A stretch of 60,960 nucleotides of DNA from an uncultured Candidatus Saccharibacteria bacterium (GCA_964348225.1 CAYGBM010000025.1:1-60960), one strand, 5' to 3'; counted from the stretch's first letter, positions 9,424-49,072 are shown. Notes: generated by a model not told the origin, from the sequence alone. Translations and numbers: made by a program.

Positions 9424-9430
9424 GGATTTG

Positions 9431-9939: not shown

Positions 9940-9950
9940 CAGATTGGGGT

Positions 9951-10017: not shown

Positions 10018-10103
10018 GGTTGATTTCATTTTACTTTGTTTGAAGTATAATGATATCGGAGGATTAAAGGCCGATGTTTTAATTATGAGTACGATAATTA
10101 TTT

Positions 10104-10766: not shown

Positions 10767-10788
10767 TCTTTAGAGAGAAAGACGAAAT

Positions 10789-10823
10789 AAAAGAGAGTAC
10801 TTAGATACTCTCTTTTATTTTTT
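10789..10823. terminator. Bidirectional intrinsic terminator between convergent genes
   Basis: AAAAGAGAGTA / TACTCTCTTTT 11-bp stem followed by ATTTTTT. The loop overlaps the stop codon of the minus-strand gene. Confidence 0.75.
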
Positions 10824-12063: not shown

Positions 12064-12101
12064 AAATATAATACTAATCTACGAATGATACACGAATACC
12101 A

Positions 12102-24320: not shown

Positions 24321-24965
24321 ATGAAACTTTATATTCCTCCAAAGAGAAATATTCAAAAGCCTGACAAGGACGACCCGGTTTTTCGGCATTATTTTCCTTT
24401 GGTCGGGTATATCCACAAAAAAAGACTATTCAACACCCTTAAACTTTTAGAAGGTAGAAATCATTACCAAAGAATTTTAGATGTTGGCTATGGAAGCGGT
24501 ATTCTATTCCCTGAATTATCAAGCAGGGCTAAACAGGTTTATGGCTTGGAAGTTCACGAAAAAGAAAGCCTGGTTTCTCGAATGTTAGAAAAAGAGGGTG
24601 TTGCCAATGTTTTTTTAAAGCGGGGGACTATTTTAGAAATGCCCTTCAAAGACAGTTATTTCGATGCTGTTGTTTCTGTAAGCACCTTAGAACACATCAA
24701 GGATTTGGACAGAGCTATTTGCGAGATAAAAAGAATTTTAAAACCAGCAGGGAGAGTTGTTCTTTCGTTCCCTGTAAGAAATGCTGCCACTGATTTTTGT
24801 TTCAGATTGTTGGGATACAAGCCAAGAGAAATTCATCCTTCCAGCCATTCAGATATTATTGCTGCAGCAAAAAGACACTTCAAAATTGAAGAGATACTTA
24901 AATTCCCTAATTTTTCCAATATTGATTACTCGCTTTATTGTTCAATAAAATGCAGAAGAGCTTGA
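24321..24965 (+). CDS. Class I SAM-dependent methyltransferase
   Basis: ILDVGYGSGILF motif I and LKPAGRVVL. The ATG at 24321 lies 5 nt after the upstream stop. Confidence 0.75.
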   Translation: MKLYIPPKRNIQKPDKDDPVFRHYFPLVGYIHKKRLFNTLKLLEGRNHYQRILDVGYGSGILFPELSSRAKQVYGLEVHEKESLVSRMLEKEGVANVFLKRGTILEMPFKDSYFDAVVSVSTLEHIKDLDRAICEIKRILKPAGRVVLSFPVRNAATDFCFRLLGYKPREIHPSSHSDIIAAAKRHFKIEEILKFPNFSNIDYSLYCSIKCRRA

Positions 24966-26578: not shown

Positions 26579-27276
26579 AGCTTTCAATTATTGTGCCTGT
26601 TTACAATGAGAAAGATACGATTTTAGAAGTTCTAAAGAGAATTGAACGTGTTGAGTTGCCCAGCATTGAAAAAGAAATTGTCATTGTTGATGATGGCTCT
26701 TCTGATGGAACGAGAGAAATTTTGTTAAGGCTTCAGAATCAATACAAAGTGATTTTCCAAGACAAGAATTATGGAAAGGGGCTTGCTGTTCGTGAGGGGT
26801 TGAAGCTGGCAAGCGGGGAGATTATCCTAATCCAAGACGCTGATTTGGAATACGACCCAAGAGATTATCCAAAGTTGTTAAAACCTATTTTAGCAAGACA
26901 AGCCAATGTTGTTTATGGTTCTCGAATTTTAGGCGAAAAACTTGATGCTGACAAGGGAAGAGCGGGTTGGATTTACTATTTAGGAGGAAGATTTTTGAGC
27001 TTTCTAACCAATCTTTTGTATGGCACAAAAATTACTGATGAACCAACCGGCTATAAAGTTTTTAAGGCCGAAGTTATAAAAAACCTAGCTCTTAAATGTC
27101 AAAGGTTTGAATTTTGTCCTGAGGTTACAGCAAAAATAGCCAAAAAGAAAATTAAAATATTTGAGGTGCCAATAAGCTATCACCCCCGCCACAAAAAACA
27201 AGGCAAGAAAATAAACTTTAAAGATGCCTTAGTGGCAATTTGGACATTGATTAAATATCGCTTTTTAAAACAATGA
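26575..27276 (+). CDS. GT2 polyprenol-phosphate glycosyltransferase-like enzyme
   Basis: LSIIVPVYNE, DDGSSDGT and QDADLEYDP. An ATGA overlap joins it to the upstream gene. Confidence 0.85.
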   Translation: MKLSIIVPVYNEKDTILEVLKRIERVELPSIEKEIVIVDDGSSDGTREILLRLQNQYKVIFQDKNYGKGLAVREGLKLASGEIILIQDADLEYDPRDYPKLLKPILARQANVVYGSRILGEKLDADKGRAGWIYYLGGRFLSFLTNLLYGTKITDEPTGYKVFKAEVIKNLALKCQRFEFCPEVTAKIAKKKIKIFEVPISYHPRHKKQGKKINFKDALVAIWTLIKYRFLKQ

Positions 27277-28589
27277 AGGGGTTTTTTAAAACCAATAAAG
27301 TCTTAATTATCGTTCTCCTCTTAGCCTTAGTTATAAGGCTTGTTTATCTTTTTGTTTTCCAGCCCCCCTTGATTTGGGTTGATTCATCTGACTATGACCA
27401 GTTGGCTTTAAATTTAGCCAATGGTTATGGATATAGCAGCCAGTCTGGAATACCTTATGCTTTCCGAGAGCCTGGTTATTCTTTATTTTTTCTAGCCCCC
27501 TTGTATTTTGTTTTTGGGCACAGTATCTTAGTTGTTCAGCTTTTTCAGATATTTTTGAGTTTAGGTATTGCTCTTTTGATTTTTTATTTGGCTAAAAAAT
27601 ATTTTTCAAAGAAGATAGCTCTTCTGTCTGTTGCTTTTTTTGCTTTTTACCCACCTTTTATTGCTTACTCAGCTGAGGTCTTAACCGAAATCCCAGCGAT
27701 TTTTCTGTTGATTTTGGGTGTTTTTTTGATTATCCAAAGCCTTAAAAAGAAATCCCTTAAGTTTTCTGTTTTAACCGGAATAGTATTGGGGATGCTGGCT
27801 TTGACTCGTTTTGTTTTTGTGTTTTTGCCGCTTTTTTTGCTAGCGATGTCTTTGATTTTGCGTAATTGGCGTGGGTATGCCAAGCATTTTGCAGTTGCTT
27901 TTGTTTTGTCTATCTTGGTGCTTTTTCCTTGGTTTCTGAGGAATTATTTAGCCTTTGATGCTTTTGTTTTTGGCAGGATTGGCAGTGGCAGGATGTTGTG
28001 GGCTGGCAGTTATATTCCCTGGCAAGGAGAACACAAATTTCACATTTACACTTGGCCAAACCAATTAATGAGAGGGTTGAGCCCTATTGAAACTGACAGG
28101 GAATTTAGCCGACTGGCTGTTGAAAACATTAAAAAAGAACCCTTTGGAACTCTTATGGTTTGGATGAGGAAACCAGCTAGATTATTTTTGAAAAGTGAAT
28201 TTGATGAAGTAATAACAAGAGAAAACAGCCTTGCTGCCTTTTTCCAGCAGCAGTCTTTTTTAAGCCCCCGATTAGTCAGAGGGGTGATGGGAGGGATAAA
28301 TGTTCTTATTTTGTTATTCGGTTTGTTGGGTGTTTTTCCTGCTCTGAAAAAGAACCGTTTTGCTGCTACCTTGTTTTTCATTCTTATATTCTATCTTTTT
28401 ATTTTTTATCTCCCTGCTATTCCAGACGCTCGTTACAAACTACCTATCGTGCCATATCTAATGATTTTTTCCTCCACAGGACTTTGTTATTTATTCAGTC
28501 GCATTGGAGATAGGAAAGCGAGTTTTTTTGAAAAGAAAGAGGAAGAGAGAGCAAGAAACAATGTAAGATCTTTAGGGAATTATCTGTAA
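27273..28589 (+). CDS. GT-C (ArnT/PMT-like) membrane glycosyltransferase
   Basis: Polytopic membrane protein with VDSSDYDQLALNLANGYGY loop 1. An ATGA overlap joins it to the upstream gene. Confidence 0.65.
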   Translation: MKGFFKTNKVLIIVLLLALVIRLVYLFVFQPPLIWVDSSDYDQLALNLANGYGYSSQSGIPYAFREPGYSLFFLAPLYFVFGHSILVVQLFQIFLSLGIALLIFYLAKKYFSKKIALLSVAFFAFYPPFIAYSAEVLTEIPAIFLLILGVFLIIQSLKKKSLKFSVLTGIVLGMLALTRFVFVFLPLFLLAMSLILRNWRGYAKHFAVAFVLSILVLFPWFLRNYLAFDAFVFGRIGSGRMLWAGSYIPWQGEHKFHIYTWPNQLMRGLSPIETDREFSRLAVENIKKEPFGTLMVWMRKPARLFLKSEFDEVITRENSLAAFFQQQSFLSPRLVRGVMGGINVLILLFGLLGVFPALKKNRFAATLFFILIFYLFIFYLPAIPDARYKLPIVPYLMIFSSTGLCYLFSRIGDRKASFFEKKEEERARNNVRSLGNYL

Positions 28590-28657: not shown

Positions 28658-30355
28658 ATGATTAGGCCTCATGGAGATAAATTGGTAAATAGAGCCTTGT
28701 CTCTTTCAGGAAAAGAAGGAGTTTTAAACAGGCTGGACAGTTTCAAAAAGATATTCTTAAACGAGGAAGAAGCAAAGGATGTAAAAAACATAGCTCATGG
28801 CGTTTTTTCACCCCTAAGAGGGTTTCTAAGAAAGGAAGATTTTGAGAGAGTGCTTTCTGAGATGAGGTTGGCTGACGGTATGGTTTGGCCAATCCCTATT
28901 GTCTTGGATGTTGAAGATGAAGAGTATGAGCACATAAAGAATTCAAGCGAGATTATCCTTTTTGGTGCGAAAAAAACCCCTGTTGCTGTTTTAACTGATA
29001 TCCAGATTTATTCTTTTGATAAAGACCTTTTTGCTGGAAGTGTTTTTGGCACGAAAGACAGGAGTCATCCCGGAGTGGCTGACGTTTATAAAATGGGAAA
29101 TTATTTAGTGGGTGGGGAGATTGGACTTCTTGAAGGCTCAAGAGAACCTTTCCCAAATTATAATTTTATTCCTCAGGAAACAAGACAGATGTTTAAAGAA
29201 AGAGGATGGAACAGGATAGTTGCTTTTCAAACAAGGAATGTTCCTCATCGAGGGCACGAATTTTTACAAAAAAGAGCTCTTGAAGAAACAGATGGTTTGT
29301 TCGTGCAGCCGGTAGTAGGGGAGAAGAAATTAGCAGATTTTAAAGATGAATATATTTTAGCAACCTACGAGACTTTAATTGACAGGTATTATCCAAGAAA
29401 TAAGGTATTTTTAGGGGTTCTTCCCTTAAAGATGCGATACGCGGGGCCAAGGGAGGCGGTTTTACACGCTTTAATAAGGAAAAATTTTGGCTGCACTCAT
29501 TTTATTGTAGGCAGGGATCATGCAGGGGTTGGCAGCTATTATCCTGCTTTCGCCGCCCAGGAAATATTTGACAACTTCTCAAAAGAAGAAATCGGCATTG
29601 AAATTCTTAAATTCTCAGAAGTGGTTTATTGTCCTAGTTGCCAGAAGCACATTTTTTTGGGAGAATGCCAGCACAAGCACATAATTTCTTTTAGCGGCAC
29701 AAGATTCAGAAAAAACTTAGAAGAAAAAGAGGACCCCCCTCCTTATATTGTGCGGCCAGAAGTTTATAATCTACTTTCTCAAAGTTATAACTCCTTAGTT
29801 GACAATATTTATAAGAACCCAAAAAACAAAAAACAAAAAGGTTTCGTCGTTTGGATTACCGGTCTTTCCAAGTCAGGAAAAACCACAATAGGTGATAAGG
29901 TCTTTGAGGTTCTCAAACAAAGAGGCATTAAAACAGAACGTTTAGATGGCGACATTATCCGTCAGAACCTAAGCCGAGACCTTGGATTTTCCAAGGAAGA
30001 TAGAGACGAAAATATAAGACGGATTGGCTTTATCTCTAGTTTGTTAAGTAGAAACGATATAGGGGTGGTTGCTTCATTTATTTCACCTTACAGAGAAGAA
30101 AGAAGAGGGGTAAAAGAAAGGGTTAAAAATTTTATTGAAGTATTTTGCAACTGCCCCTTAGAAGTATGTGAGAACAGGGACGAAAAGGGGCTTTACCGCA
30201 AAGCAAGACAAGGAGAAATTCAGAACTTCACCGGAATTTCTGACCCCTATGAGTTTCCTGAAGAGCCTGAGGTTGAATTAAAAACCGATATAGAATCAGT
30301 TGAAGAAAGCGTCAAAAAGGTAATTCAATACCTGGAAAGGAATAATTTTGTATAA
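28658..30355 (+). CDS. Bifunctional sulfate adenylyltransferase / adenylylsulfate kinase (PAPS synthase)
   Basis: Sulfurylase motifs QTRNVPHRGHE and GRDHAG. The C-terminal APS kinase P-loop is ITGLSKSGKTT. Confidence 0.9.
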   Translation: MIRPHGDKLVNRALSLSGKEGVLNRLDSFKKIFLNEEEAKDVKNIAHGVFSPLRGFLRKEDFERVLSEMRLADGMVWPIPIVLDVEDEEYEHIKNSSEIILFGAKKTPVAVLTDIQIYSFDKDLFAGSVFGTKDRSHPGVADVYKMGNYLVGGEIGLLEGSREPFPNYNFIPQETRQMFKERGWNRIVAFQTRNVPHRGHEFLQKRALEETDGLFVQPVVGEKKLADFKDEYILATYETLIDRYYPRNKVFLGVLPLKMRYAGPREAVLHALIRKNFGCTHFIVGRDHAGVGSYYPAFAAQEIFDNFSKEEIGIEILKFSEVVYCPSCQKHIFLGECQHKHIISFSGTRFRKNLEEKEDPPPYIVRPEVYNLLSQSYNSLVDNIYKNPKNKKQKGFVVWITGLSKSGKTTIGDKVFEVLKQRGIKTERLDGDIIRQNLSRDLGFSKEDRDENIRRIGFISSLLSRNDIGVVASFISPYREERRGVKERVKNFIEVFCNCPLEVCENRDEKGLYRKARQGEIQNFTGISDPYEFPEEPEVELKTDIESVEESVKKVIQYLERNNFV

Positions 30356-30374: not shown

Positions 30375-31193
30375 ATGTTCAAAGGAGAACTTAGAGATGT
30401 TCTTGGTTTAGCTAAAAAGGCAGGAGAAGAGACTTTAAAGGTTTATAAAAACGAGGTTAAGGGCTTTCAGAAAGAAGATAGGTCACCGGTAACCAAAGCC
30501 GATCTTGTTTCCCAGAGAATTATTTTGGATGGTTTGAAAAAATACAGCTATGGTGTTCTTGCTGAAGAAGCCGAAGATAGTCTTTTGCGATTGCAAAAGG
30601 AAAGGGTCTGGATGATTGACCCATTGGACGGAACCAAGGATTTTTTAGCGAAAACCGGAGAATTTTCCATCATGGTTGGATTAGCCCATCGCGGAAAGCC
30701 GGTTTTGGGCGTGGTTTACCAGCCTCTCGGAGATAAAATTTACTTTGCAGTAAAAGGAGAGGGAGCTTTTGTAAAAGAAAGCGGCAAACCCTCGAAGAAA
30801 TTAACTGTTTCTAATGTTGCCAATTTCTCTGATGCTCGCTTCCTTCTTAGTAGATTTCATTTTGGTGAATCAGAAAAGGAATTTACAGAGAAGAACAAAA
30901 TAAAAAATATTCTTCAAATAGGTAGCTTGGGCTTGAAGGCAGGAATGATTGCTAAAGGAAAAGCTGAGGCAATGTTTAATTTTAGCGATAAAACAAAGCA
31001 GTGGGATACGTGTGCTGCAGAAGTGATTCTTAGAGAAGCGGGCGGGGAAATTACAGACTCAAGAGGAGAGAAATTTGTTTATAATCGCAAAGAAGTGAGA
31101 AATCTCAATGGGGTTGTAGCAACTAATGGAAAAATCCACCAGCAGATAATTAGAAGAGTAAGTTACTTGTATCGGAATTTCAATAACAATTGA
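30375..31193 (+). CDS. cysQ: 3'(2'),5'-bisphosphate nucleotidase (inositol-monophosphatase family)
   Basis: EEAED, WMIDPLDGTKDF and WDTCAAEVILREAGG. It is adjacent to the PAPS synthase gene. Confidence 0.8.
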   Translation: MFKGELRDVLGLAKKAGEETLKVYKNEVKGFQKEDRSPVTKADLVSQRIILDGLKKYSYGVLAEEAEDSLLRLQKERVWMIDPLDGTKDFLAKTGEFSIMVGLAHRGKPVLGVVYQPLGDKIYFAVKGEGAFVKESGKPSKKLTVSNVANFSDARFLLSRFHFGESEKEFTEKNKIKNILQIGSLGLKAGMIAKGKAEAMFNFSDKTKQWDTCAAEVILREAGGEITDSRGEKFVYNRKEVRNLNGVVATNGKIHQQIIRRVSYLYRNFNNN

Positions 31194-32917: not shown

Positions 32918-34528
32918 GTGCTCAAGGTCTTTTCTGAAAATATAAACTTTTTTTTAGACTTGATAAGAATTATCACCAGTGAGATATTTGGCTTTTTGCG
33001 TTTTTTTGGATTTAAGAACCCCAACTTAAAAAGATTGTTTAAGCTGGAAGAAAGAGCAGAAGCAAAGAGATTATTGATTGTTAGTTTAACGAATACAAAC
33101 TTCAGCATAAATATAGAGTCTTTATTTGCTAAATATTTTAACCTAGAAGGATATAAGGTTTTTTTTCTGACAAATTTCAAATACAAGAAAGCGGTAAAGA
33201 CATTTCGGGCGATAGAGGGAAAGACTATTTATCATCATTTTATTTATCTTAAAAAAGGAATTAAATCCCTATTTAAAAGATTGCCGGTGGTTAGCGACCC
33301 TCAAGGTGTTAAAAATTTTTGCTACAAAAATATAAATATCGGAATTGGAGTTTACAGCACCTTATCCAGAAAATTAAGATTGGGAAAACTTGACTTTTCT
33401 GATAAAAAAACAAAAAGGTTAGCAAATAGATATCTACGAAGGTCAGCTGTTTATCTGGAAGCAGCAAAAGAGATACTTGGCAGAACAAAACCTGACTTAA
33501 TTTTAGCTTTGGAAAAAGGATACATGGGGCACAGTGAAATTTTTAATTTAGCTGTGGAGCAAGGCATTGACTTTATTCAATGGTGTGGCTGCCAAGAGGT
33601 AAATGCCCTAATATTTAAAAGATATAATAAGCAAAATAAGAGAGAGCCCCCATTTTCGGTTTCTTCAAAAACCTGGAATAGATTTTTGAGCCTTCCTTGG
33701 AATGAGAAATATCGAAAAGAGGTGTACGAAGCTTTTGACAGGGGATACTTAAAACAAGATTGGTTTTGGTATAAGGATCTGTCGGGAATCTCCAAGTTTA
33801 TCAGCAAAGAAGAACTCATTAAAAAATATAATCTCAATCCTGAAAAGAAGATAGCGATTTTATTCTCTCATGTACTCTGGGATGCAAATTTATTTTATGG
33901 TAAAGATTTATTTGAGCAGGGCTTTGAAGAATGGTTAATTGAGAGCATCAAAGTGATGGTAAAGAATAAGAATATTAATTGGTTGATTAAAATCCACCAG
34001 GCTAATAAAATAAAGTTTTTTTTAGAAAAGACGAAAGATGAGTATCGAGAAAATAAGGCAATAAAAGAAAATTTTGGAGAAATTCCAGAAAATATAAAAA
34101 TTATTTATCCAGAAGATGAGATAAATCCTTATTCTTTGTTCAAAATAATCGATTATGGTATTACGGTTAGAGGTACTATCGGGACCGAATTGCCTTGTTT
34201 GGGATTGCCGGTGTTGACTGCTGGCACAGGTCGTTATTCAGGCAGGGGGTTTACCATCGATTCTTCTCAGAAATCAGAATACCTGGAAAAATTGGCTCAT
34301 TTAGAAGATTTTCCAAAACTGAAAGAAGAGCAAATAAGATTAGCTATATTGCACACTTATATTCTTTTTAAATTAAGGCCTTTAAAGTTTTCAAGCTTTG
34401 AAGACAAGCGCTCGAGCAAAGGCAACGATATTGGCATAAACATTGAAAGCCCAGAACAAGGAGAAGATTTTCTGAGGTTTGTTAATTGGGCAAGTAAAAC
34501 AAAAGAAGAAGATTTTTTAATAACTTAA
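32918..34528 (+). CDS. Putative capsule-type glycosyltransferase (KpsS/KpsC-like?); candidate nonulosonic-acid transferase
   Basis: Weak resemblance to capsule polysaccharide biosynthesis proteins, plus its position next to neuC. It has a non-ATG start. The assignment is tentative. Confidence 0.3.
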   Translation: MLKVFSENINFFLDLIRIITSEIFGFLRFFGFKNPNLKRLFKLEERAEAKRLLIVSLTNTNFSINIESLFAKYFNLEGYKVFFLTNFKYKKAVKTFRAIEGKTIYHHFIYLKKGIKSLFKRLPVVSDPQGVKNFCYKNINIGIGVYSTLSRKLRLGKLDFSDKKTKRLANRYLRRSAVYLEAAKEILGRTKPDLILALEKGYMGHSEIFNLAVEQGIDFIQWCGCQEVNALIFKRYNKQNKREPPFSVSSKTWNRFLSLPWNEKYRKEVYEAFDRGYLKQDWFWYKDLSGISKFISKEELIKKYNLNPEKKIAILFSHVLWDANLFYGKDLFEQGFEEWLIESIKVMVKNKNINWLIKIHQANKIKFFLEKTKDEYRENKAIKENFGEIPENIKIIYPEDEINPYSLFKIIDYGITVRGTIGTELPCLGLPVLTAGTGRYSGRGFTIDSSQKSEYLEKLAHLEDFPKLKEEQIRLAILHTYILFKLRPLKFSSFEDKRSSKGNDIGINIESPEQGEDFLRFVNWASKTKEEDFLIT

Positions 34529-34532: not shown

Positions 34533-35675
34533 ATGAGGAAAATTTGCGTAATCTCTGGTAAAAGAGGGGGGTTTAATGCCCTAATACCGACAATGCGGCT
34601 GATTGAAAAGGACGCTAAGCTTAAGCTTCAGCTTGTTTTAACTGATATGCATTTGAGCAGGCAGTTTGGCTACACTATCCGTGAGGCTGAGAAATGGTTT
34701 AAGGTTGCAGAAACAATTCCCCTAGGACAAAAAGATGACTCTCCGCAAAGCAGAACAGAGGCCTTGGGCGAAGCCTTGAAAAAGATGGCTGGAACTTTTG
34801 CTATCTTGGAGCCAGATATTGTTTTGCTGTTAGGGGACAGAAGCGAAACAGTGGTGGCTGCTTTTGCTGCTTTGCAGTTGAGAATTCCGATAGCCCATAT
34901 CCAAGGCGGTGAGATTTCAGGCAATATAGATGGCATTCAAAGGCATGCTATTACTAAATTAGCCCATTTGCATTTTACGGAAACAAGGAAAGCAGCTGAA
35001 AGGGTAATAATGCTGGGCGAGGAGAAATGGAGAGTATTTTTTACAGGAGCGCCCTATGTTGATTTTATTAAGCAAAAGCTTTATTCTTCACCAGATGTTG
35101 TTCAGCAAAAATTTAATTTGCAACCAAAAGAGAAATTTCTGCTTTGCTTGCAGCATCCAGTAACCACTGAACCGGAAAAGTCATATCAACAAATGAAAGA
35201 AACAATCAAAGCCTTAAGAGCATTTCCTTACCGTTCTATTTTAGTTTATCCTTGCTCTGACCAGGGCTATCAGGGTATTGTTTCAGTTATTGAACAAGCA
35301 AGAGCAGAGAAGAAGTTCTCAATTTATAAAAATATTCCAGCCCCTGATTTTCTGGGCTTGGAGAACTTGGCTTCAGCCTTGGTTGGTAATTCAAGCGCTG
35401 GCATTTACGAGGCGCCTTATTTGCATCTGCCAGCTGTTAATATTGGCAAACGTCAACAGGGCAGGGAAAGAGAAAACAACGTTATTGATGTGCCTCACGA
35501 GGCGGCAGCAATCATCAAAGCGATTGAAAGGATAATCTCTTCTGCTCAATTCAAAAAGCAATTGAAGCAGTTAAAATATATTTACGGCAGAGGTGATGCT
35601 TGCTCCAAGATTGTTAAGGCTTTAAAAGAAGTAAAGCTGGACAACAAGCTTTTTGAGAAAAAATTGACTTTTTGA
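34533..35675 (+). CDS. neuC: Hydrolysing UDP-HexNAc 2-epimerase (NeuC/LegG family)
   Basis: GKRGGFNALIP, LLGDRSETVVAAFAA, IAHIQGGEISGNIDGIQRHAITKLAHLHF. Confidence 0.85.
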   Translation: MRKICVISGKRGGFNALIPTMRLIEKDAKLKLQLVLTDMHLSRQFGYTIREAEKWFKVAETIPLGQKDDSPQSRTEALGEALKKMAGTFAILEPDIVLLLGDRSETVVAAFAALQLRIPIAHIQGGEISGNIDGIQRHAITKLAHLHFTETRKAAERVIMLGEEKWRVFFTGAPYVDFIKQKLYSSPDVVQQKFNLQPKEKFLLCLQHPVTTEPEKSYQQMKETIKALRAFPYRSILVYPCSDQGYQGIVSVIEQARAEKKFSIYKNIPAPDFLGLENLASALVGNSSAGIYEAPYLHLPAVNIGKRQQGRERENNVIDVPHEAAAIIKAIERIISSAQFKKQLKQLKYIYGRGDACSKIVKALKEVKLDNKLFEKKLTF

Positions 35676-36674: not shown

Positions 36675-37736
36675 ATGGGAACTAAAAAAACAGTTAATCT
36701 TGCGGGGAGAGAGGTTGGCTATGGCCAGCCTATTTATATTGTAGCTGAAGGCGGGGTTACCAACTTTGGTTCTCTTGATATAGCCAAAAGACAGGCAATT
36801 GAAGCTCGAAGAGTTGAGGCTGACGTGATTAAATATCAGGCGGCTGTTGTGTCCGATTTGGTCAGTAAAAAAGTAAGCAAGCGTTTAGTTAAAGAGCTGG
36901 GATATGATTGGTATCAAAGACTGGCTTACAAGCATATGAGTTTTGCTCAACTGAGAGAACTTTTTGATTTTTGCTCTCGCTTGGAAATGCCTATTTTTGC
37001 GTGTCCTCACGATGAGAAAAGTTTGAATTTTTTAACAGACGAGCTCAAGATGCCCTTTATCAAGGTTGGCTCTGGGGAGGCTCACAATTTTGAATTTTTA
37101 AAAAAAGTAGCTCAAAAGCAAAGACCAGTGATTATAGCTTTTGGCATGCAAAGCGAAAAAGAGATATTAGAAGCAATCAAGGTTTTAAGAGAAGAGGGGG
37201 CTTTGGGTATTATTGCTTTGCATTGTGTTACAATTTATCCAACACCAGCTAAAATAGCTAATCTTAGTCGGATGATTAGGCTGCAGAATATTTTAGATGT
37301 ACCAGTTGGCATTTCTGACCACACTGTTGGCTGGCATATTCCTTTGGCAGCAGCAGCCTTGGGAGCGAGGGTAATTGAAAAACATTTTACTTTTGACAAG
37401 AGCGATTTGAGGTCTTTGGATAATGCGGGTGCTCTCTTACCCAATGAATTTGCTAAGATGGTTTCTCAAATAAGGGAGATTGAGAAGGCAATGAGTAATT
37501 TGTCTGAGGAAGAATTTCTAAGAATTATCCAGCGAAGCCGGCATTGGGCCGGACAGAGCTTAATTGCCAAAGAAGATATTCCTCCTGGCGCTTTTATAAC
37601 CGCTGATGTTGTTTGTTATAAAAGGCCATTGAAAGGCGGCTTGGAGCCTGACCAACTTGGTTTAATTTTGGGCAAAAAAGCAAAGAAGCTAATTGAGAAG
37701 GATGAGCAAATCACCTTTGATTATCTGGAGGGATAA
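36675..37736 (+). CDS. neuB: Nonulosonic acid synthase (NeuB/LegI/PseI family)
   Basis: IYIVAEGG, IKVGSGE, VGISDHTVG, VIEKHFTFDKS and a C-terminal SAF domain. The usual NH in the AE.G.NH.G motif reads NF here. Confidence 0.8.
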   Translation: MGTKKTVNLAGREVGYGQPIYIVAEGGVTNFGSLDIAKRQAIEARRVEADVIKYQAAVVSDLVSKKVSKRLVKELGYDWYQRLAYKHMSFAQLRELFDFCSRLEMPIFACPHDEKSLNFLTDELKMPFIKVGSGEAHNFEFLKKVAQKQRPVIIAFGMQSEKEILEAIKVLREEGALGIIALHCVTIYPTPAKIANLSRMIRLQNILDVPVGISDHTVGWHIPLAAAALGARVIEKHFTFDKSDLRSLDNAGALLPNEFAKMVSQIREIEKAMSNLSEEEFLRIIQRSRHWAGQSLIAKEDIPPGAFITADVVCYKRPLKGGLEPDQLGLILGKKAKKLIEKDEQITFDYLEG

Positions 37737-37783
37737 TTTATTAGACCAAAAGAGGATTCTTGTCTGTTGGCAAAAAGCAAAAT

Positions 37784-39829
37784 ATGAATGCAAGCTCTTC
37801 AAAAACAATTATCTATCTATGTGATTTAACCCATATTTTTCACAATCAGGGAGCTTTAAACGGCATCCCTCTGGGCATTGGCTGTATTTCGTCTTTCTTG
37901 AACAAAAGCCTCGGCAACGTCGAGGTGAATTTGTTTAAGTTCCCGCAAGACCTTAATAGAGCCCTGAAACAGCAGATCCCTGATATTATTGGCTTTAGCA
38001 ATTATGTTTGGAACTTGCATTTAAGCTATAAGTTTGCTGAAGAGATAAAGAAGATTAAGAAAGAAACAGTGGTAGTTTTTGGTGGCCCAAATTATCCGCG
38101 CGATAAACGAGCAAGAGAGGAATTTCTCAATGATTTCTCAGCCATTGATTTTTATGTAAAAAAGGAAGGAGAAAAGGCATTTGCCATTTTAGTTGAACAT
38201 TTGATTAAAAACAACCTATCAGTTGAGAAAGTTAAAGCCAGTAATTTGCAGAGTGTTGATTTTTTGAGCAATAATAGACTAGTAGAAACCACGCTTCTGC
38301 CAAGAATAAAGAGCCTGGGAGAGATTCGTTCGCCCTATGTTTTGGGCCTCTTAGATGAGTTTTTAGATAGAGGCATGATTCCCTTGATTCAAACAGACAG
38401 GGGATGTCCTTTTAGCTGCGCTTATTGTTGTGAAGGCGAACCTTACTATTGTTTAAGAGCAGTAAGGCCTACAGAGCAGATTAAAGAAGAAATAGAGTAT
38501 ATTGCCCGTTGGGCAGAGAAGCTCCATGGTTTATTCATTGCTAATTCAAATTTTGGCATGTATCCCGAGGATTTAGAAACAGCCAGAGAGATAGCTAAGG
38601 TGAAGAGAGAAACCGGCTGGCCTGATTATATCAATGTAGCTACTGGAAAAGAAAACAAAGAGTTGGTTGTAGAGGTTACTGATGTGTTAGAGGGTATGTT
38701 GAGGGTTAGTGCCTCAGTGCAATCAACCGATGAGGAGGTATTAGCCAGCATTAAAAGAAGAAATGTTCCCATGGAAGTTATTGCTCGGATGGCTGAGAAA
38801 TCAAAGATAATCGGTAGCAATACCTATTCAGAGGTCATTATCGCTTTGCCCCAAGACAGCAAAGCCAAGTTTCTTAAAAGCGTTCAAGATGTGATTGAGT
38901 TTGGCTTGAACTATGTTCTGGTTTACACCTTAATGCTTTTGAGTGGTTCTGAGCTTGATACGGAAAAAGTCCGTGAGCAATATGGTATTGTTTCAAAATA
39001 TCGGGTGCCACCGAGATGCTTTGGCAAATATACTGTTTTCGGTAAAGAGTTTAGTATTGGTGAAGTTGAAAAAGTCGCTGTTGCTAACACCACGTTAAGT
39101 TTTAAAGATTATTTAACCTGTCGAGTGTTTTTTCTGGTTGTGAATTTATTCTACAACCATGGTATTTTTGAAGAATTAGTTTTTCTGCTGAAACGAAACG
39201 GCATTTCTATTTTTCAGTGGCTGCGGGAAATTTTTAAGCTCATTGTCAAAGGCAGCGACTATCCCAGAATAAAAGAATTATTCAGCGATTTTCTTAGAGA
39301 AACAAAAGAGGAGCTTTGGGATTCTAAAGAGGAGCTTTTGGCTTTTCTGTCTGAAAAAAGCAACATTGAAAAATACATAAAAGGCGAGCTGGGGAGCAAT
39401 TTAGCTTATAAGTATCAGGTGTTGGCATTGGTCAGATACAGCCGGCCTCTACATGAGATTGCTTTCCGGGCAGCTGAAAAGCTTATTTTCTCCAAAACAC
39501 AGGTGTCAGATAGGCAGCTTTTAAGAGAATTTTTAAAAGAACTGAAAAAATTCAACATTGCTAAGAAAGAGGATCCGTTTGATTTCAAGAGAAGCGAGGT
39601 TTTAGAATTCAATTTTGATTTCATTCGGTTCGGGCAGTTGATGAGTTCAGGTTTCTCGATAAACGATTCAAAAGCAAAGACAAGTATTAGGTTTTCCCAC
39701 AATAAAGAGCAAAAAGAGAATTTGGAAAGATACTTAAGATTATACGGTGATGATGTTGTGGGCATTTCTCTTATTCTTTCAAAAATATATATTAAAAAAA
39801 TATTCAGAGAAGCAGCAAAAATCCCTTGA
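37784..39829 (+). CDS. B12-binding-domain radical SAM enzyme
   Basis: An N-terminal cobalamin-binding-like domain (..VVVFGGPNYP) and the radical SAM motif CPFSCAYC. Confidence 0.8.
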   Translation: MNASSSKTIIYLCDLTHIFHNQGALNGIPLGIGCISSFLNKSLGNVEVNLFKFPQDLNRALKQQIPDIIGFSNYVWNLHLSYKFAEEIKKIKKETVVVFGGPNYPRDKRAREEFLNDFSAIDFYVKKEGEKAFAILVEHLIKNNLSVEKVKASNLQSVDFLSNNRLVETTLLPRIKSLGEIRSPYVLGLLDEFLDRGMIPLIQTDRGCPFSCAYCCEGEPYYCLRAVRPTEQIKEEIEYIARWAEKLHGLFIANSNFGMYPEDLETAREIAKVKRETGWPDYINVATGKENKELVVEVTDVLEGMLRVSASVQSTDEEVLASIKRRNVPMEVIARMAEKSKIIGSNTYSEVIIALPQDSKAKFLKSVQDVIEFGLNYVLVYTLMLLSGSELDTEKVREQYGIVSKYRVPPRCFGKYTVFGKEFSIGEVEKVAVANTTLSFKDYLTCRVFFLVVNLFYNHGIFEELVFLLKRNGISIFQWLREIFKLIVKGSDYPRIKELFSDFLRETKEELWDSKEELLAFLSEKSNIEKYIKGELGSNLAYKYQVLALVRYSRPLHEIAFRAAEKLIFSKTQVSDRQLLREFLKELKKFNIAKKEDPFDFKRSEVLEFNFDFIRFGQLMSSGFSINDSKAKTSIRFSHNKEQKENLERYLRLYGDDVVGISLILSKIYIKKIFREAAKIP

Positions 39830-39880: not shown

Positions 39881-41308
39881 ATGAAAAAAATTCTTTGTTT
39901 AATCCCAGCCAAAGGGGAGTCAGGTGAGATTGAAAAAAAGAATATCACCCCTATTTCGGGTAGGCCAATGATAGAGTATGCTTTTGATGCGGTTAAGAAA
40001 AGCCGTCTCGTTAATCGTATTGTTTTAAGCACTGATGACGAAGAAATTGCAGAAATTGCCAGAAAAAACGGCATAGAAGTGCCTTTTAAAAGACCAGAAG
40101 AATTAGCCACTGACCAAACACCAATGATTCCGGTTTTAAAGCATGCCTTAAACACCTTGAAGGAAAAAGAGGGGTATTGGCCTGATTTTGTTTTGCTCGT
40201 TCAGCCCAACTCGCCCCTTATTAGACCAGAGCAGATTGACCAGGCATTACAAACATTAATGGAAAAAGAGGTGGATTCAGTGGAAACAGTAACTGAAGTG
40301 CCCACTATCTTTCATCCTTATAGCATACGTTATATTAGCCAGCAGGGCTACACCCAGTTTTTAATGCCAGCAGAAAGGGAAAAGTATGCCTTGGAGGGCG
40401 GAAAAAAACCTAGGTTTTATGCTATCGGCAACCTCTTTGCTTTCAAACCAGAAAATATTTTTGAAACAGATACTATCCAGGGGCGGATTTCGTTCCCTAT
40501 TGTTATAGATAGAAAAAGCGCTTTTGGCGTTAAAGATCCCTTAGATCATTTCTTTGCTGAGCATTTCTTTGAGAACTTTAAAGACAAGATAGACCACTCA
40601 AAAGAAGTGATTTCTCAAGCAGTAAAAAAATACAGAAATATTGCGGTTGCCTGTTCTTTTGGCAAAGATAGTATGGCTACGGTTCATTTAGCAAGGGAAG
40701 TAGCCCCCAACATACCGGTTTTTTGTATAACAACAACCTATAAACCCCAAGAGACGCTTAGTTATGCTGTTCAAATGAATAAGGAAATGAATTTGAACAT
40801 AACTGCTTATATTGTAAGTAAAGAGGTACCTGTTGTTTTCAAACAAGCAGGCGTTAAAACAGTGCTTTTGGATAGCGAGGAATTTGATAGGGCTCTTTCT
40901 TCATGCGAAAAAGAACACGGCAAGATGCTTTACGAGGTTAACCCTGATTTTTGCTGCGAGCTCTTGAAGGTAAACCCAACAAAAGAAGCGGTTAAAAACC
41001 TTGATGCTTGGATTGCAGGTTTAAGAAGAGACGAGGGCTATTCCCGTCGCAGTTATCAAGAGATTGAAACTCAAGGAGATTTGGTTAAGATAAACCCAAT
41101 CTTGGAGTGGTCAGAGCTTGATGTTTGGCGGTATTTGGCTCTTTATAATATTCCAGCAAACCCTCTTTATCAAAAGGGTTATCGCAGTTTAGGGTGTGCT
41201 CCCTGCAGTAAAATTATCAGTGATGAGCAGCCCGAAAGAGCTGGCAGATGGCAAAATACAAGCAAGTGTGGAGGAGAGTGTGGTATTCACACTAAAAGGT
41301 TGAAATAA
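39881..41308 (+). CDS. Fusion of an acylneuraminate-cytidylyltransferase-like domain and an APS/PAPS reductase (CysH-type, Fe-S) domain
   Basis: The N-terminal half is paralogous to 43493-44221. The C-terminal half has SFGKDS, CCELLKVNP, WIAGLRRDEG, GYRSLGCAPCS and ECGIH. Confidence 0.8.
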   Translation: MKKILCLIPAKGESGEIEKKNITPISGRPMIEYAFDAVKKSRLVNRIVLSTDDEEIAEIARKNGIEVPFKRPEELATDQTPMIPVLKHALNTLKEKEGYWPDFVLLVQPNSPLIRPEQIDQALQTLMEKEVDSVETVTEVPTIFHPYSIRYISQQGYTQFLMPAEREKYALEGGKKPRFYAIGNLFAFKPENIFETDTIQGRISFPIVIDRKSAFGVKDPLDHFFAEHFFENFKDKIDHSKEVISQAVKKYRNIAVACSFGKDSMATVHLAREVAPNIPVFCITTTYKPQETLSYAVQMNKEMNLNITAYIVSKEVPVVFKQAGVKTVLLDSEEFDRALSSCEKEHGKMLYEVNPDFCCELLKVNPTKEAVKNLDAWIAGLRRDEGYSRRSYQEIETQGDLVKINPILEWSELDVWRYLALYNIPANPLYQKGYRSLGCAPCSKIISDEQPERAGRWQNTSKCGGECGIHTKRLK

Positions 41309-41336
41309 GCTAAGCGGTACATAAAACAAAAATAGT

Positions 41337-42464
41337 ATGAAAAAAATCCTTATTTTAGGAATTGACGGCTACCTTGGCTGGGCCTTAGCGAATTATTTAA
41401 AAGAAAGGGGCTATGAAGTTTTTGGCATGGATAATTTTTTGAGAAGAAAAATGGTGAAAGAGATCGGCAGCCATTCAGCTGTGCCTATTTTAAGCCCGGA
41501 AGAGAGGCAGAAGTATATTCCTTTTGAGGTCGGGGATATGCTTGATTATCAAAAAGTTGAGGATGTTTTGCAGAGATTTCGACCAGATGCCATTGTTCAT
41601 TTTGCAGAACAGCCAGCTGCCCCTTATTCAATGATAGACGTTCAACATGCTGTTTTTACCCAGAAAAATAATGTTTTAGGGACATTAAATCTTCTTTGGG
41701 CGATGAAAGAGATTTGTCCCGACGCCCATTTGATTAAGCTAGGAACCATGGGCGAGTACGGAACACCCAACATAGATATCTCCGAAGGTTTTTTTGAAAT
41801 AGAGTTTAGGGGAAGAAAAGACAGATTGCCTTTTCCCAAGCAGGCAGGGAGCTGGTATCATCAGACAAAGGTACACGATTCAAACAATATCTTATTTGCC
41901 TGCAGAATCTGGGGGTTGAGGTCAACCGATATTAACCAAGGTCCTGTTTATGGAAGCAAAACCGATGAAATGAAAGAAGATTGGCAGAGAACCCGTTTTG
42001 ACTTTGACCAGTCCTTTGGAACCGCCTTAAACAGATTTTGCAGCCAGGCAGTAATTGGCTTTCCTTTGACCCCTTATGGCAGGGGCGGCCAAATCAGAGG
42101 TTATATCAATATTAACGATTCCATGCAAGCAATCCGCTTGATTATTGACAATCCCCCCAAGCAAGGGGAATACAGGGTATTTAATCAATGGATAGAAAAG
42201 TTCAGCATCAACCAGTTAGCTGAGATTGTCAAACAGGCAGCAGAGAAAATCGGATTAAAAGTTACTATTCAAGCGCTTAATAATCCAAGGAAAGAGGCTG
42301 AGGAACATTATTATAACCCTGACAATCAAGGGCTTTTTCGCTTGGGCTTGAAACCGCGGGGCTTAAAAGAAGTTGTCCCCCAGACTATAAAGGACTTAAT
42401 AAAATTTAAAGATAGGATTGAGGCAAAAAAAGACTTCATTAAACCAACCATTAAGTGGGCATAA
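41337..42464 (+). CDS. sqdB: UDP-sulfoquinovose synthase
   Basis: Near full-length match to SqdB/SQD1 signatures: GIDGYLGW, HFAEQPAAPYSMID, KLGTMGEYGTPNIDI, PFPKQAGSWYHQTKVHDS, FGTALNRFC, NNPRKEAEEHYYNP. Confidence 0.85.
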   Translation: MKKILILGIDGYLGWALANYLKERGYEVFGMDNFLRRKMVKEIGSHSAVPILSPEERQKYIPFEVGDMLDYQKVEDVLQRFRPDAIVHFAEQPAAPYSMIDVQHAVFTQKNNVLGTLNLLWAMKEICPDAHLIKLGTMGEYGTPNIDISEGFFEIEFRGRKDRLPFPKQAGSWYHQTKVHDSNNILFACRIWGLRSTDINQGPVYGSKTDEMKEDWQRTRFDFDQSFGTALNRFCSQAVIGFPLTPYGRGGQIRGYININDSMQAIRLIIDNPPKQGEYRVFNQWIEKFSINQLAEIVKQAAEKIGLKVTIQALNNPRKEAEEHYYNPDNQGLFRLGLKPRGLKEVVPQTIKDLIKFKDRIEAKKDFIKPTIKWA

Positions 42465-42481
42465 GAGGAGTCAAATAGAAA

Positions 42482-43435
42482 ATGACAGCTAAATGTTATC
42501 TTTGCTTAGGTGAAAACCTAAAACTAATCAGAGATAGATTAAGGCATAATATAAAAAGGAATGTTTGGCAGTGTCTTGGCTGCGGTTTGGTTTTTTTAGA
42601 GCCAGGGCAAGAGAATTTAAAAGAATTCTACACAGAGGACTATCGCAAACTTCATAGTCCGGTTGTAGGTAAGGCCCTTTCAGCCAAGGAGATTTTTGAT
42701 ATTTACTTACCCTTTCAACAGAACCGTCTAAACGAAATTCAGCATCTTTTAAATCCGAAAAAGAAGGTTTTAGATATTGGGTGTTCAACCGGTCATTTTC
42801 TTTATTCAATCAAGAAATGTGTCGGAGAGGTTGTTGGGGTTGAGCTAAACCAAGAACATGCTGATTTTTGCAACAATAATTTGGGGATTAAAGTTTACAC
42901 TCAACCCATTGAGGAGGTGAATTTGCCAAAGGGTTACTTTGATTTAGTTTCAATTTTACAAACATTAGAACATATCGAAAACCCTGTTTCGTTTTTGAGA
43001 AAGGTTGGTGAATTTCTCAAGCCAGATGGTACTCTTTATTTGGAGGTGCCAAACGTAGACGATGCTTTAAGAACCATTTTCGGTATTTCTGCTTTTGACG
43101 ATTTCGACTTTAGACAACCGCATCTATTTTATTTTTCAAAAAATACCCTTTCTTCAATAGCTGGAAAGGCTGGCTTTGAGGGGGTAGTTAAGGGCACTGC
43201 CTATCCAAATATTATTAATCAGCTTCACTGGATTTTTCTTCAGAAACCCCAGAATTCAGCAAGCGATATGTTTGGCGATATCCGACTGCCTTTTGCTGCA
43301 GATGTTCCAGGGGAGACAAAATCAGAATTCCTCAGTCTGTTTAGAAAATTCAATAAAGAGTACCGGCAGCTTCTTAAAAATAATTTTTTAGGTCATGCTA
43401 TTCTATTTTTGGGCAAGAAGAGATTAAGAGCATAG
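42482..43435 (+). CDS. Class I SAM methyltransferase with N-terminal zinc ribbon
   Basis: CYLC...CLGC ribbon and VLDIGCSTGHFL motif I. Confidence 0.75.
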   Translation: MTAKCYLCLGENLKLIRDRLRHNIKRNVWQCLGCGLVFLEPGQENLKEFYTEDYRKLHSPVVGKALSAKEIFDIYLPFQQNRLNEIQHLLNPKKKVLDIGCSTGHFLYSIKKCVGEVVGVELNQEHADFCNNNLGIKVYTQPIEEVNLPKGYFDLVSILQTLEHIENPVSFLRKVGEFLKPDGTLYLEVPNVDDALRTIFGISAFDDFDFRQPHLFYFSKNTLSSIAGKAGFEGVVKGTAYPNIINQLHWIFLQKPQNSASDMFGDIRLPFAADVPGETKSEFLSLFRKFNKEYRQLLKNNFLGHAILFLGKKRLRA

Positions 43436-43492
43436 TCGCTCGTTATCGCTCGCGAACGATGAAGGCTTGAGGCTTAAAGACCTCAGTGAAAA

Positions 43493-44221
43493 ATGAAAAA
43501 TGCAAAGTATAAAAAAAATTATAAAATTCTCTGTTTAATTCCAGCCAGAGGGGGTTCTAAGCGGCTACCCAAGAAAAACATTCTTCTCCTTGGGGGACGC
43601 CCAATGCTCGAGTATGTTTGCAGGGCAGCCAAACAGAGTAGCTTGGTTAACCGTATTGTGCTGTCAACCGATGATGACGAAATTGCTCAAGTAGGCCGAA
43701 AGAATGGCATTGAGGTGCCTTTCAAGAGACCTTCAGAGTTAGCCCAAGACACAACGCCAACAGTACCGGTTTTGAGGCATGCCCTTACTTTTCTAAAAGA
43801 GAAAGAAGGCTACTGGCCTGATTTTGTTTTGATGCTTCCCCCAACCGCCCCTTTTGTTAAAACAGAGCAAATTGATAAAGCCCTCCGAGTGTTGATTGAC
43901 AAAGGAGTGGATTCGGTAGAAACACTAATTGAAGTGCCAACTATTTTTCACCCTTACAATGAACGTTATATTGACGAGAAAGGCTTTACTCACTTTCTTA
44001 TGCCGAAAGAGAGGGCCGAGCATAGCATTGAAAGCGGCAAGCGGCCCAAAATTTATGCCTTGGGCAACCTTTTTGCTTTCAAGCCAGAAAATCTTTTTGA
44101 AACTAACACCATCCAAGGCAAAACCTCTCTATCTATAATTATAGATAGAGAGACCGCTTGGGACATAGACGATACCCTTGATTTATTTATTGCCCAATGT
44201 TTACTAGAAAGAAAGACCTAA
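43493..44221 (+). CDS. neuA: Acylneuraminate (nonulosonate) cytidylyltransferase
   Basis: IPARGGSKRLPKKN, GRPMLEY, STDDDEI, and the overall CMP-NeuAc-synthetase pattern. Confidence 0.85.
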   Translation: MKNAKYKKNYKILCLIPARGGSKRLPKKNILLLGGRPMLEYVCRAAKQSSLVNRIVLSTDDDEIAQVGRKNGIEVPFKRPSELAQDTTPTVPVLRHALTFLKEKEGYWPDFVLMLPPTAPFVKTEQIDKALRVLIDKGVDSVETLIEVPTIFHPYNERYIDEKGFTHFLMPKERAEHSIESGKRPKIYALGNLFAFKPENLFETNTIQGKTSLSIIIDRETAWDIDDTLDLFIAQCLLERKT

Positions 44222-48208: not shown

Positions 48209-49072
48209 ATGTATCTTTTCTTACATATACCCAAGGCAGCGGGTACAACATTCACTTCTCTTTTGAGAAGAAATTTTAAAGAAAGGTTCGTTCCTATTTA
48301 TGGTCTTAAAAAAACAGGTTTTTTTAGTGACTCGGAAGTTAAAACATTGGCTACTTTTTTTCCTCAAGCTCAATGTATAGCTACTCATAAATTTGCTTGC
48401 CCTATTCCACAGCCAGAAAATACTGACATAAGGTACAAACTCATAACATTCTTGAGGGACCCTGTTGACAGAGCTTTGTCGCATTATTTGTTTCACAGAA
48501 AGCGGGATAAGTTAGGCATTATAAAAAAAGAGCTTGCTCGTTTGCCCTTTGAAGAATATTTTGAGAAGTTGAGAGAGAAATGCCACAAAGATGCTCAAGG
48601 AGAATGGTCTTATTTATGTAATATGCAAGCTTACATTTTGGACAGGAATTATAATATAGAGGAAGCTAAAAAAAGAATCAAGAATGAGTTTTTCTTTGCG
48701 GGGGTGAGTGAGAGGTTCGATGAATGTCTTCTTCTTTTAAAAAAGAGATTCAAAAAAGATGGGATAGACCTGAAAATAAATTATTTCATGAAAAATGTAG
48801 GGGGTGGAAGAAAGAATTCCAAGGAATTTTTAGCCCCAAAAGTTTACGACAAGGTTCTCGAATCCAACCGATTAGATAAAGATCTCCATGATTTTGTTAA
48901 TCAACTTTTGGACGAGGAGATAAAAGGCTACGGTAATCAATTTTATACTGATTTAGCAAGCTTCAAAAAAGAGCAGAAACGGCTTAGTTCTTTCACTGGT
49001 TCAGCGGAATTATTAAGTAAATTTTTACGTTATCAAAATAAGCTGGTTAATAAATGGCTTGCTCGCTTTTAA
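48209..49072 (+). CDS. PAPS-dependent sulfotransferase (Sulfotransfer_2-like)
   Basis: 5'-PSB-like FLHIPKAAGTTF and 3'-PB-like FLRDPVDRALSHY. Confidence 0.7.
   Translation: MYLFLHIPKAAGTTFTSLLRRNFKERFVPIYGLKKTGFFSDSEVKTLATFFPQAQCIATHKFACPIPQPENTDIRYKLITFLRDPVDRALSHYLFHRKRDKLGIIKKELARLPFEEYFEKLREKCHKDAQGEWSYLCNMQAYILDRNYNIEEAKKRIKNEFFFAGVSERFDECLLLLKKRFKKDGIDLKINYFMKNVGGGRKNSKEFLAPKVYDKVLESNRLDKDLHDFVNQLLDEEIKGYGNQFYTDLASFKKEQKRLSSFTGSAELLSKFLRYQNKLVNKWLARF

Follow-up and report, generated by a model that had tools for sequence, protein, structure and literature searches.

A degenerate NeuA-like domain fused to a CysH-type reductase, encoded beside an SqdB homologue in a glycan locus of the candidate phyla radiation

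Introduction

In a stretch of 60,960 nucleotides from an uncultured Candidatus Saccharibacteria bacterium (GCA_964348225.1, CAYGBM010000025.1:1-60960; hereafter the window), a single gene of 475 codons joins a NeuA-like cytidylyltransferase domain to a CysH-type reductase of adenylyl sulfate (APS) or phosphoadenylyl sulfate (PAPS). This is a new domain architecture made from known parts, and it is confined to one small clade of the candidate phyla radiation (CPR). The reductase half keeps all its motifs, while in the window the NeuA half has lost both aspartates of the metal site. The next gene encodes a homologue of UDP-sulfoquinovose synthase (SqdB), and genes for sulfate activation lie about 10 kb upstream. 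We consider it fairly probable that the CysH half serves as a dedicated supplier of sulfite for UDP-sulfoquinovose and that the dead NeuA domain acts as a non-catalytic module.

Results and discussion

The fusion is genuine and very rare

The open reading frame (ORF) could start at TTG 39854 or ATG 39881, and it ends at 41308 on the + strand. The ATG agrees with the N-termini of the fusion orthologues and was adopted. Pfam assigns CTP_transf_3 (PF02348) to residues 6-138 (E 5.9e-23, 82 bits against a cutoff of 22.6) and PAPS_reduct (PF01507) to residues 253-444 (E 1.4e-43, 149 bits against 22.5). A preliminary description of this DNA, made from the sequence alone, had called the N-terminal half a near-twin of the free NeuA encoded at 43493-44221. 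BLASTP agrees, with 144 identities over 228 positions (63%), no gaps and E 2e-110, and the shared stretches LVNRIVLSTDD, RKNGIEVPFKRP, KEKEGYWPDF, VDSVET and PTIFHPY were all recovered. The difference in P-loop that the description reported between the fused and the free copy, IPARGGSKRLPKKN versus IPAKGESGEIEKKN, is likewise present in the alignment. An AlphaFold2 model folds both domains; its predicted local distance difference test score (pLDDT) is 82 overall and about 97 for the CysH half, and falls below 50 for residues 139-183 (the dimerisation sub-domain) and 209-229.

Two separate genes could look like one if a stop or a frameshift had been missed or if the assembly had joined them chimerically, a concern already raised in the preliminary description. 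Three orthologues bear on it: P0001 (77% identical to the window protein), P0002 (76-77%, depending on the alignment) and P0003 (71%). Their sources are ENA ERZ26661968 and Logan run SRR22302367, NCBI GCA_046760405.1 together with three Logan runs and, for P0003, Logan SRR22388290. The two-domain ORF is uninterrupted in every one of them, in assemblies made separately from different samples. All four proteins are collinear across a conserved linker, FAEHxFENFKDKIEHSKE, and their alignment contains no indel, stop or frameshift at the junction. The ratio of nonsynonymous to synonymous substitution rates (dN/dS) is low on either side of it. The artefact is effectively refuted, and the chance that it explains the gene is negligible.

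The preliminary description knew of no such fusion, and wider searches bore it out. The literature searched holds no account of a cytidylyltransferase-CysH fusion. A search of 5.8 billion proteins found PF02348 combined with PF01507 only in P0001-P0003. A HMMER scan of 1.84 billion representatives at 50% identity listed no two-domain relative, its best match (291 bits) covering the CysH half only. Long matches in that scan were examined as candidates and rejected, being tandem PAPS_reduct, tandem NeuA, NeuA-2-Hacid_dh, CysH-PALP, intein-containing CysH or CysH-hexapeptide proteins. They include a double PAPS_reduct (P0141), a double NeuA (P0143) and two CysH homologues into which a LAGLIDADG intein is inserted (P0139, P0160). 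Across 185,579 species genomes of GTDB, the sole fusion match was a metagenome-assembled genome of Paceibacterales (JBHIEB010000005.1), an order equivalent to Minisyncoccales of the phylum Minisyncoccota, within CPR/Patescibacteria. A scan of JGI metagenomes returned 432 relatives, all of the NeuA half only and at most 49% identical, and no fusion.

The NeuA-like half of the window protein has lost its metal site

Catalytic residues were mapped by aligning the NeuA copies to the CMP-sialate synthetase of Neisseria meningitidis (NmCSS), to which they are only 27% identical, so that mapping of the sugar pocket is uncertain. In NmCSS, Arg12 and Lys21 bind the nucleotide, and Asp209 and Asp211 are the ligands of the catalytic Mg2+; activity was not measurable in the D209A mutant, and kcat fell 15,000-fold in D211A (PMC2901514). 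Of the P-loop ligands of the CTP phosphates (Arg12, Lys16 and Lys21) the window fused copy retains only the last, and three glutamates are inserted into the loop. The aspartate pair is present in P0003, in the free NeuA of the window and in the outgroups, and is replaced by glycine and lysine in the fused copies of the window, P0001 and P0002 (Table 1). D209G is the sole catalytic column that is fixed in this degenerate trio and fixed otherwise in the remaining clade members and outgroups.

Table 1. Residues of the NeuA copies at catalytic positions, in NmCSS numbering.
Copy	R12	K16	K21	D209	D211
Window, fused domain	K	G	K	G	K
P0001, fused domain	K	E	R	G	K
P0002, fused domain	R	E	R	G	K
P0003, fused domain	R	K	K	D	D
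Window, free NeuA	R	K	K	D	D
L001 and L003, free NeuA	R	K	K	D	N

When compared with NeuA/CSS and PseF enzymes (PDB 1eyr, 6ifd, 9ftb), the window fused copy shares the CTP_transf_3 fold and keeps the cytosine/ribose positions A11, S15, N22, R71 and P105, plus Q104, all of them cytidine- or sugar-associated in NmCSS. It differs in its fusion to CysH and in the absence of R12, K16, D209 and D211, and is predicted to be dead. Its best curated match, TIGR03584 (PseF), reaches 126 bits, below the cutoff of 205.7. The window N-domain is very probably inactive as a cytidylyltransferase. It has the fold and ancestry of NeuA, and by the catalytic residues that define the family it would not be a functional CMP-nonulosonate synthetase.

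The domain is nevertheless conserved. Nei-Gojobori estimates of dN/dS range from 0.08 to 0.12 in the N-domain (0.085-0.112 for the window copy against the orthologues) and from 0.07 to 0.10 in the C-domain; they are rough because dS exceeds 1.2 and is saturated. The free NeuAs give the same picture. Purifying selection on the N-domain is as strong as on the CysH half. An active site that is lost while the sequence stays as conserved as in catalytic domains marks a pseudoenzyme domain that has kept a non-catalytic function.

Of the ideas in the preliminary description, that of a non-catalytic NeuA half thus holds for the window, where both Mg2+-binding aspartates are lost besides the P-loop, and fails as a statement about the whole family, since the active site of P0003 is intact. 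It follows that the dead domain is a later, lineage-specific decay, and the ancestral fusion may once have been a bifunctional enzyme. In a neighbour-joining tree the seven clade sequences group together in 200 of 200 bootstraps, the degenerate trio in 184 and the three free copies in 193. The N-domain of P0003 is placed ambiguously, with the fused copies in 121 replicates and with the free ones in 78, and for this reason the tree does not give the order of fusion and duplication. It does indicate that the duplication happened inside this lineage and that decay came after P0003 had split off.

One could still imagine a fully bifunctional enzyme, whose N-domain makes a CMP-sugar in spite of its substitutions. 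The strong purifying selection, the retention of K21, N22, R71, Q104 and P105, and the complete active site of P0003 would fit. Nevertheless, D209G and D211K together remove both metal ligands, each of which is critical in NmCSS (PMC2901514), the window P-loop lacks K16 and carries the glutamate insertion, and every genome with a visible flank also encodes, 2 kb downstream of the fusion, a free NeuA paralogue that is intact (the P0003 contig stops just past the fusion gene). We regard such an enzyme as very unlikely.

The CysH half is a complete Fe-S-type reductase

The C-terminal half matches NCBIfam NF002537 (phosphoadenylyl-sulfate reductase) with 187.4 bits, above the cutoff of 154. The preliminary description had noted the full Fe-S APS reductase signature, and each of its elements, SFGKDS, CC, CxxC and ECGIH, is present and aligned with the CysH structures 7lhr (M. 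tuberculosis) and 2goy (P. aeruginosa). By this alignment C358, C359, C439 and C442 are the four cysteine ligands of the [4Fe-4S] cluster, typical of APS-reducing enzymes. The motifs do not vary among the four fusions, and in 64 aligned sequences their conservation is 90% or more. With these two thioredoxin-dependent enzymes the fusion shares the PAPS_reduct fold, the PP-loop, the CC...CxxC ligands, the Arg-loop and the C-terminal ECG[IL]H with its catalytic cysteine. It differs by the additional N-terminal NeuA-like domain of 235 residues, and by its place in a glycan locus beside SqdB instead of a cys operon.

Many stand-alone CysH proteins of 260-285 residues are 53-58% identical to this half. 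The suggestion of the preliminary description that the protein could act on a nucleotide-activated sulfo-sugar finds no footing in so ordinary a reductase with its motifs kept. To judge from its sequence, it is a complete Fe-S-type CysH, with no sign of chemistry beyond the conversion of a sulfonucleotide to sulfite. The bifunctional Sat-CysC of the locus (Table 2) could provide it with both APS and PAPS.

The same CysH subfamily contains other fusions, whose CysH parts are 43-50% identical to that of the window: CysH-PALP proteins (P0029-31, P0035, P0047-48, P0126) and CysH-hexapeptide transferase proteins (P0026, P0034). Their partners are different, and none has a cytidylyltransferase domain. 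By analogy, these second-enzyme fusions suggest dedicated use of sulfite. The CysH-PALP proteins, which carry a pyridoxal-phosphate-dependent PALP domain, are 607-675 residues long and occur in both domain orders; they could be APS reductases joined to a cysteate- or cysteine-synthase-like enzyme, another dedicated use of sulfite.

The neighbouring SqdB homologue

SqdB had been named as the neighbour of the fusion from the outset, and the gene product is SqdB-like by a full-length match (residues 1-374, 427 bits) to Arabidopsis SQD1 (1qrr) and by its fingerprint. The motifs KLGTMGEYG and YHQTK fit the pattern [ST]MG...Yx3K; TMG with YxxxK is the fingerprint of SQD1 and Agl3 (PMC8987622). Against NF041015 the protein scores 555 bits and its counterpart in the related locus L001 565 bits, both just under the cutoff of 575.

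The residues essential in Agl3 are H95, R101, M145, Y182 and K186. The window homologue keeps the His, Met, Tyr and Lys and has proline at the position of R101. We considered this exchange as a mark of altered substrate and rejected it, as proline is the subfamily norm: it occurs in 114 of the 120 nearest SqdB homologues, many of which are named UDP-sulfoquinovose synthase by their source. The arginine, essential in Sulfolobus Agl3 and present in plant SQD1, is thus replaced in a large bacterial and archaeal SqdB subfamily, and handling of sulfite or of the sugar in this proline-type subfamily may differ from that in the characterised enzymes.

A dedicated sulfite-delivering partner of such a synthase would have a precedent. 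SQD1 is reported to purify in complex with Fd-GOGAT (the ferredoxin-dependent glutamate synthase), in a finding that PMC4388408 cites. The window homologue shares its fingerprint with plant SQD1 and archaeal Agl3. It differs in its putative supplier, which would be the APS/PAPS reductase of the adjoining gene, and in the proline at the position of Agl3 Arg101.

An independent CysH-SqdB pair

The pairing of CysH with SqdB recurs independently, without a NeuA domain, in one locus outside the fusion clade, L019 (JGI 3300033149, Ga0366834_1001586, 1-12258). Its SqdB (P0271) is 67% identical to that of the window and is the closest one outside the fusion clade. A stand-alone CysH of 215 residues overlaps the start of P0271, and a glycosyltransferase family 2 (GT2) gene follows; the module is devoid of NeuABC genes. 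At 42% identity to the CysH half of the window, this protein shares its CC/CxxC/ECGIH motifs; relative to it, the half in the fusion has an insertion of about 35 residues. L019 also contains a gene for an SU10-type phage major capsid protein, an HNH gene, several GT2 genes and a DegT aminotransferase gene, and may represent a phage-borne sulfo-sugar module.

The glycan locus

The fusion belongs to a run of glycan genes that extends over about 40 kb on one strand (Table 2). In the window, the sulfate-activation genes are followed by a Wzx-type flippase gene, NeuC, a short-chain dehydrogenase/reductase (SDR) gene, NeuB and a radical S-adenosylmethionine (SAM) methyltransferase gene. Downstream of the fusion lie SqdB, class I methyltransferases, the free NeuA, glycosyltransferases and a sulfotransferase. 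Genes for all steps from sulfate through APS/PAPS and sulfite to a sulfonated sugar are thus found together, along with a sulfotransferase that would draw on PAPS. The scanned ORFs of the window included neither a sulfite reductase nor a cysteine synthase. The complete sulfate-activation set (Sat-CysC, CysQ-like enzyme and sulfotransferase) implies that the glycan is probably both O-sulfated and C-sulfonated. Such a set is unusual equipment for a CPR genome.

Table 2. Features of the fusion gene and its locus (positions in the window; all on the + strand).
Feature	Position	Basis
Sat-CysC, bifunctional ATP sulfurylase and APS kinase, putative APS/PAPS source	28658..30355	Pfam PUA_2, ATP-sulfurylase, APS_kinase; NF003166 479 bits (cutoff 387); TIGR00455 233 bits (cutoff 139)
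CysQ-like 3'(2'),5'-bisphosphate nucleotidase, putative PAP removal	30375..31193	Pfam Inositol_P; TIGR01331 (CysQ) 194 bits, under cutoff 229
NeuC-type hydrolysing UDP-GlcNAc 2-epimerase	34533..35675	TIGR03568 376 bits (cutoff 236); syntenic in L001, L003
NeuB-family nonulosonic acid synthase, divergent	36675..37736	Pfam NeuB, SAF; TIGR03569 250 bits, under cutoff 400
B12-binding radical-SAM methyltransferase	37760..39829	Pfam, NCBIfam; same place in L001, L003, L007
Fusion gene, 475 aa (NeuA-like pseudo-cytidylyltransferase and CysH-type APS/PAPS reductase)	39881..41308	ORF, Pfam, NCBIfam, orthologues P0001-P0003
NeuA-like N-terminal domain, residues 1-235, paralogue of free NeuA, catalytically degenerate	39881..40585	63% identity to 43493-44221; residue losses
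Degenerate P-loop PAKGESGEIEKKN, residues 9-21, three acidic residues (Glu) inserted	39905..39943	Alignment to free NeuAs and NmCSS
G216-V217-K218 in place of Mg2+-binding D-x-D (NmCSS D209/D211)	40526..40534	Alignment
CysH C-terminal domain	40586..41308	Pfam, NCBIfam, alignment to PDB 7lhr and 2goy
PP-loop SFGKDS, residues 259-264	40655-40672	Aligns with 7lhr, 2goy
CC, C358 and C359	40952-40957	Aligns with 7lhr, 2goy
CxxC, residues 439-442 (C439, C442)	41195-41206	Aligns with 7lhr, 2goy
ECGIH, residues 466-470	41276-41290	Aligns with ECGLH of 7lhr, 2goy
UDP-sulfoquinovose synthase (SqdB/SQD1/Agl3 family), proposed sulfite consumer	41337..42464	SQD1 match, NF041015, fingerprint
Free NeuA-type nonulosonate cytidylyltransferase, intact P-loop and DxD	43493..44221	Pfam CTP_transf_3; R12, K16, K21, D209, D211 kept
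Sulfotransferase, putative second consumer of activated sulfate (PAPS)	48209..49072	Pfam Sulfotransfer_2, Sulfotransfer_1

The related loci L001 and L003 conserve the order NeuC, 2-hydroxyacid dehydrogenase, radical-SAM gene, fusion, SqdB, NeuA and NeuB. In each of the four genomes the fusion is directly preceded by the radical-SAM methyltransferase gene, whose product (689 residues in the window, KedN5-like) suggests C-methylation of one of the sugars. The dehydrogenase, PGDH-like, is syntenic with the fusion in L001 (6939-7925), L003 (2944-3921) and L007 (42-1007); the window has the SDR and NeuB genes between NeuC and the radical-SAM gene in its place. Elsewhere, NeuA-like cytidylyltransferases are fused to a D-2-hydroxyacid dehydrogenase (P0210, P0226). 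This recurrent link hints at a hydroxyacyl, e.g. glyceroyl, decoration of the nonulosonate.

Several other genes of the window deserve mention. Two ORFs of the glycan locus, 32918-34528 (536 residues) and 15071-15925 (284 residues), have no Pfam match, and the former has no NCBIfam match either; its equivalence with the BFO_1060-type candidate transferase found at the corresponding place in L001 was rejected, as the two show no similarity. A homologue of UDP-glucose/GDP-mannose dehydrogenase at 14226-15059 (277 residues) is missing its C-terminal domain and part of the N-domain, so that the gene may be truncated or split. Three membrane glycosyltransferases of the PMT/PMT_2 type (GT-C), at 19907-21346 (- strand), 24938-26578 and 27273-28589, point to transfer of the glycan, outside the membrane, onto protein or lipid. 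The free NeuAs (window 43493-44221, L001 12610-13341, L003 10230-10970) have P, H or T at the position of NmCSS Gln104, where all four fused copies keep Gln, and those of L001 and L003 carry Asn in place of D211. Their sugar substrate is probably other than Neu5Ac (N-acetylneuraminic acid).

A model of sulfite supply

The course of events that we consider fairly probable starts with Sat-CysC, which would activate sulfate and supply APS and PAPS. The CysH half, as a thioredoxin-type Fe-S APS/PAPS reductase, would reduce one or the other to free sulfite, and the SqdB/SQD1-type synthase next door would add the sulfite to UDP-glucose, yielding UDP-sulfoquinovose for a surface glycan. PAPS would also serve the sulfotransferase, and the resulting PAP would be cleared by the CysQ-like enzyme. 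As for the NeuA domain, a domain without catalytic residues that is still kept by selection is most likely a non-catalytic module. Since CMP-sialate synthetases are obligate dimers, it could dimerise or dock the reductase, for example with the free NeuA. Alternatively, it might be a sensor that binds a cytidine nucleotide or a CMP-sugar. The preliminary description had imagined sulfite channelled to SqdB. Among its three ideas the supply of sulfite to this enzyme fits the context best (Sat-CysC, the CysQ-like enzyme, SqdB and the L019 pair all agree with it), while physical channelling would be a further, hypothetical step.

Several points weigh against this model. The fusion partner is a NeuA paralogue and not SqdB, which is odd if sulfite is to be channelled to SqdB. 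The SqdB subfamily has proline where Arg101 is essential in Agl3. The intact active site of P0003 means that the non-catalytic state is not family-wide, and saturation of dS blurs the estimates of selection. The AlphaFold2 model gives nothing confident on inter-domain packing or on a dimer, because pLDDT is below 50 in the dimerisation sub-domain and in residues 209-229. The nearest unfused relatives of the CysH half (P0004, P0006, P0008) have no linkage to SqdB and stand beside sulfite reductase or TauE genes or among unrelated ones, so that a general link of this CysH clade to SqdB was rejected. Finally, the sulfite may be used for assimilation: the window covers just 61 kb of the genome, and a sulfite reductase could be encoded elsewhere.

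The last two points would suit a CysH of plain assimilatory function, whose sulfite goes to sulfide and cysteine, which was fused by chance to a redundant NeuA duplicate and whose link to SqdB is coincidental; the NCBI annotation of P0002, phosphoadenylyl-sulfate reductase only, would suit it as well. Such an explanation has to cope with the absence of sulfite reductase and cysteine synthase noted above, with the position of the gene inside the glycan array, with the conservation of that position beside the radical-SAM gene and SqdB in L001 and L003, and with the independent CysH-SqdB pair of L019. To our knowledge, CPR bacteria generally lack sulfur assimilation. We consider assimilation by chance fusion unlikely.

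A more far-reaching possibility treats the fusion as a Rosetta-stone trace of a single pathway, in which SqdB, NeuC, NeuB and NeuA would together make a C-sulfonated (9-deoxy-9-sulfo) nonulosonic acid. Sulfite from CysH would enter a UDP-6-sulfo-6-deoxy-hexosamine made by SqdB, followed by the hydrolysing 2-epimerase, condensation with phosphoenolpyruvate and CMP activation. SqdB is indeed nested between the fusion and NeuA/NeuB in the window, L001 and L003, and the active-looking NeuA domain of P0003 would be in line with a bifunctional ancestor. The nonulosonate enzymes also look unusual. NeuB and NeuA score under the equivalog cutoffs for N-acetylneuraminic acid (Neu5Ac) and pseudaminic acid, the best NCBIfam match of the window free NeuA being PseF with 148 bits (cutoff 205.7). 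The NmCSS positions Y179, F192, F193 and K142, which contact the glycerol chain and N-acetyl group of Neu5Ac, are different in all seven clade members, a comparison limited by the low identity to NmCSS. In the literature searched, no report joins sulfoquinovose and nonulosonic acids.

Nevertheless, NeuC, NeuB and NeuA suffice for a nonulosonate without SqdB, and L019 has its CysH-SqdB-GT2 module without them. Both the full-length match to plant SQD1 and the SQD1/Agl3 fingerprint argue for UDP-glucose as the SqdB substrate. Moreover, the glycal mechanism of NeuC-type epimerases requires a 2-acetamido sugar. A joint pathway to sulfonated nonulosonate is, in our opinion, decidedly unlikely.

Implications

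If the supply of sulfite to SqdB is as we propose, the fusion would be an example of an APS/PAPS reductase recruited from sulfur assimilation to become a dedicated sulfite generator for synthesis of a sulfo-sugar. A CPR bacterium with a reduced genome would then devote about 40 kb to a surface glycan that is sulfated, sulfonated and methylated. The fusion and the all-in-one sulfo-glycan locus are noteworthy for a CPR genome in themselves; they would change the field only if the sulfo-nonulosonate pathway were real, in which case a biochemical link between SqdB and NeuABC would point to a new class of sulfonated nonulosonic acids. With one active-looking fused NeuA (P0003) and three copies that lack the metal site and remain under selection, this small clade presents a pseudoenzyme in the making, and it offers good material for the study of how dead enzyme domains acquire new roles.

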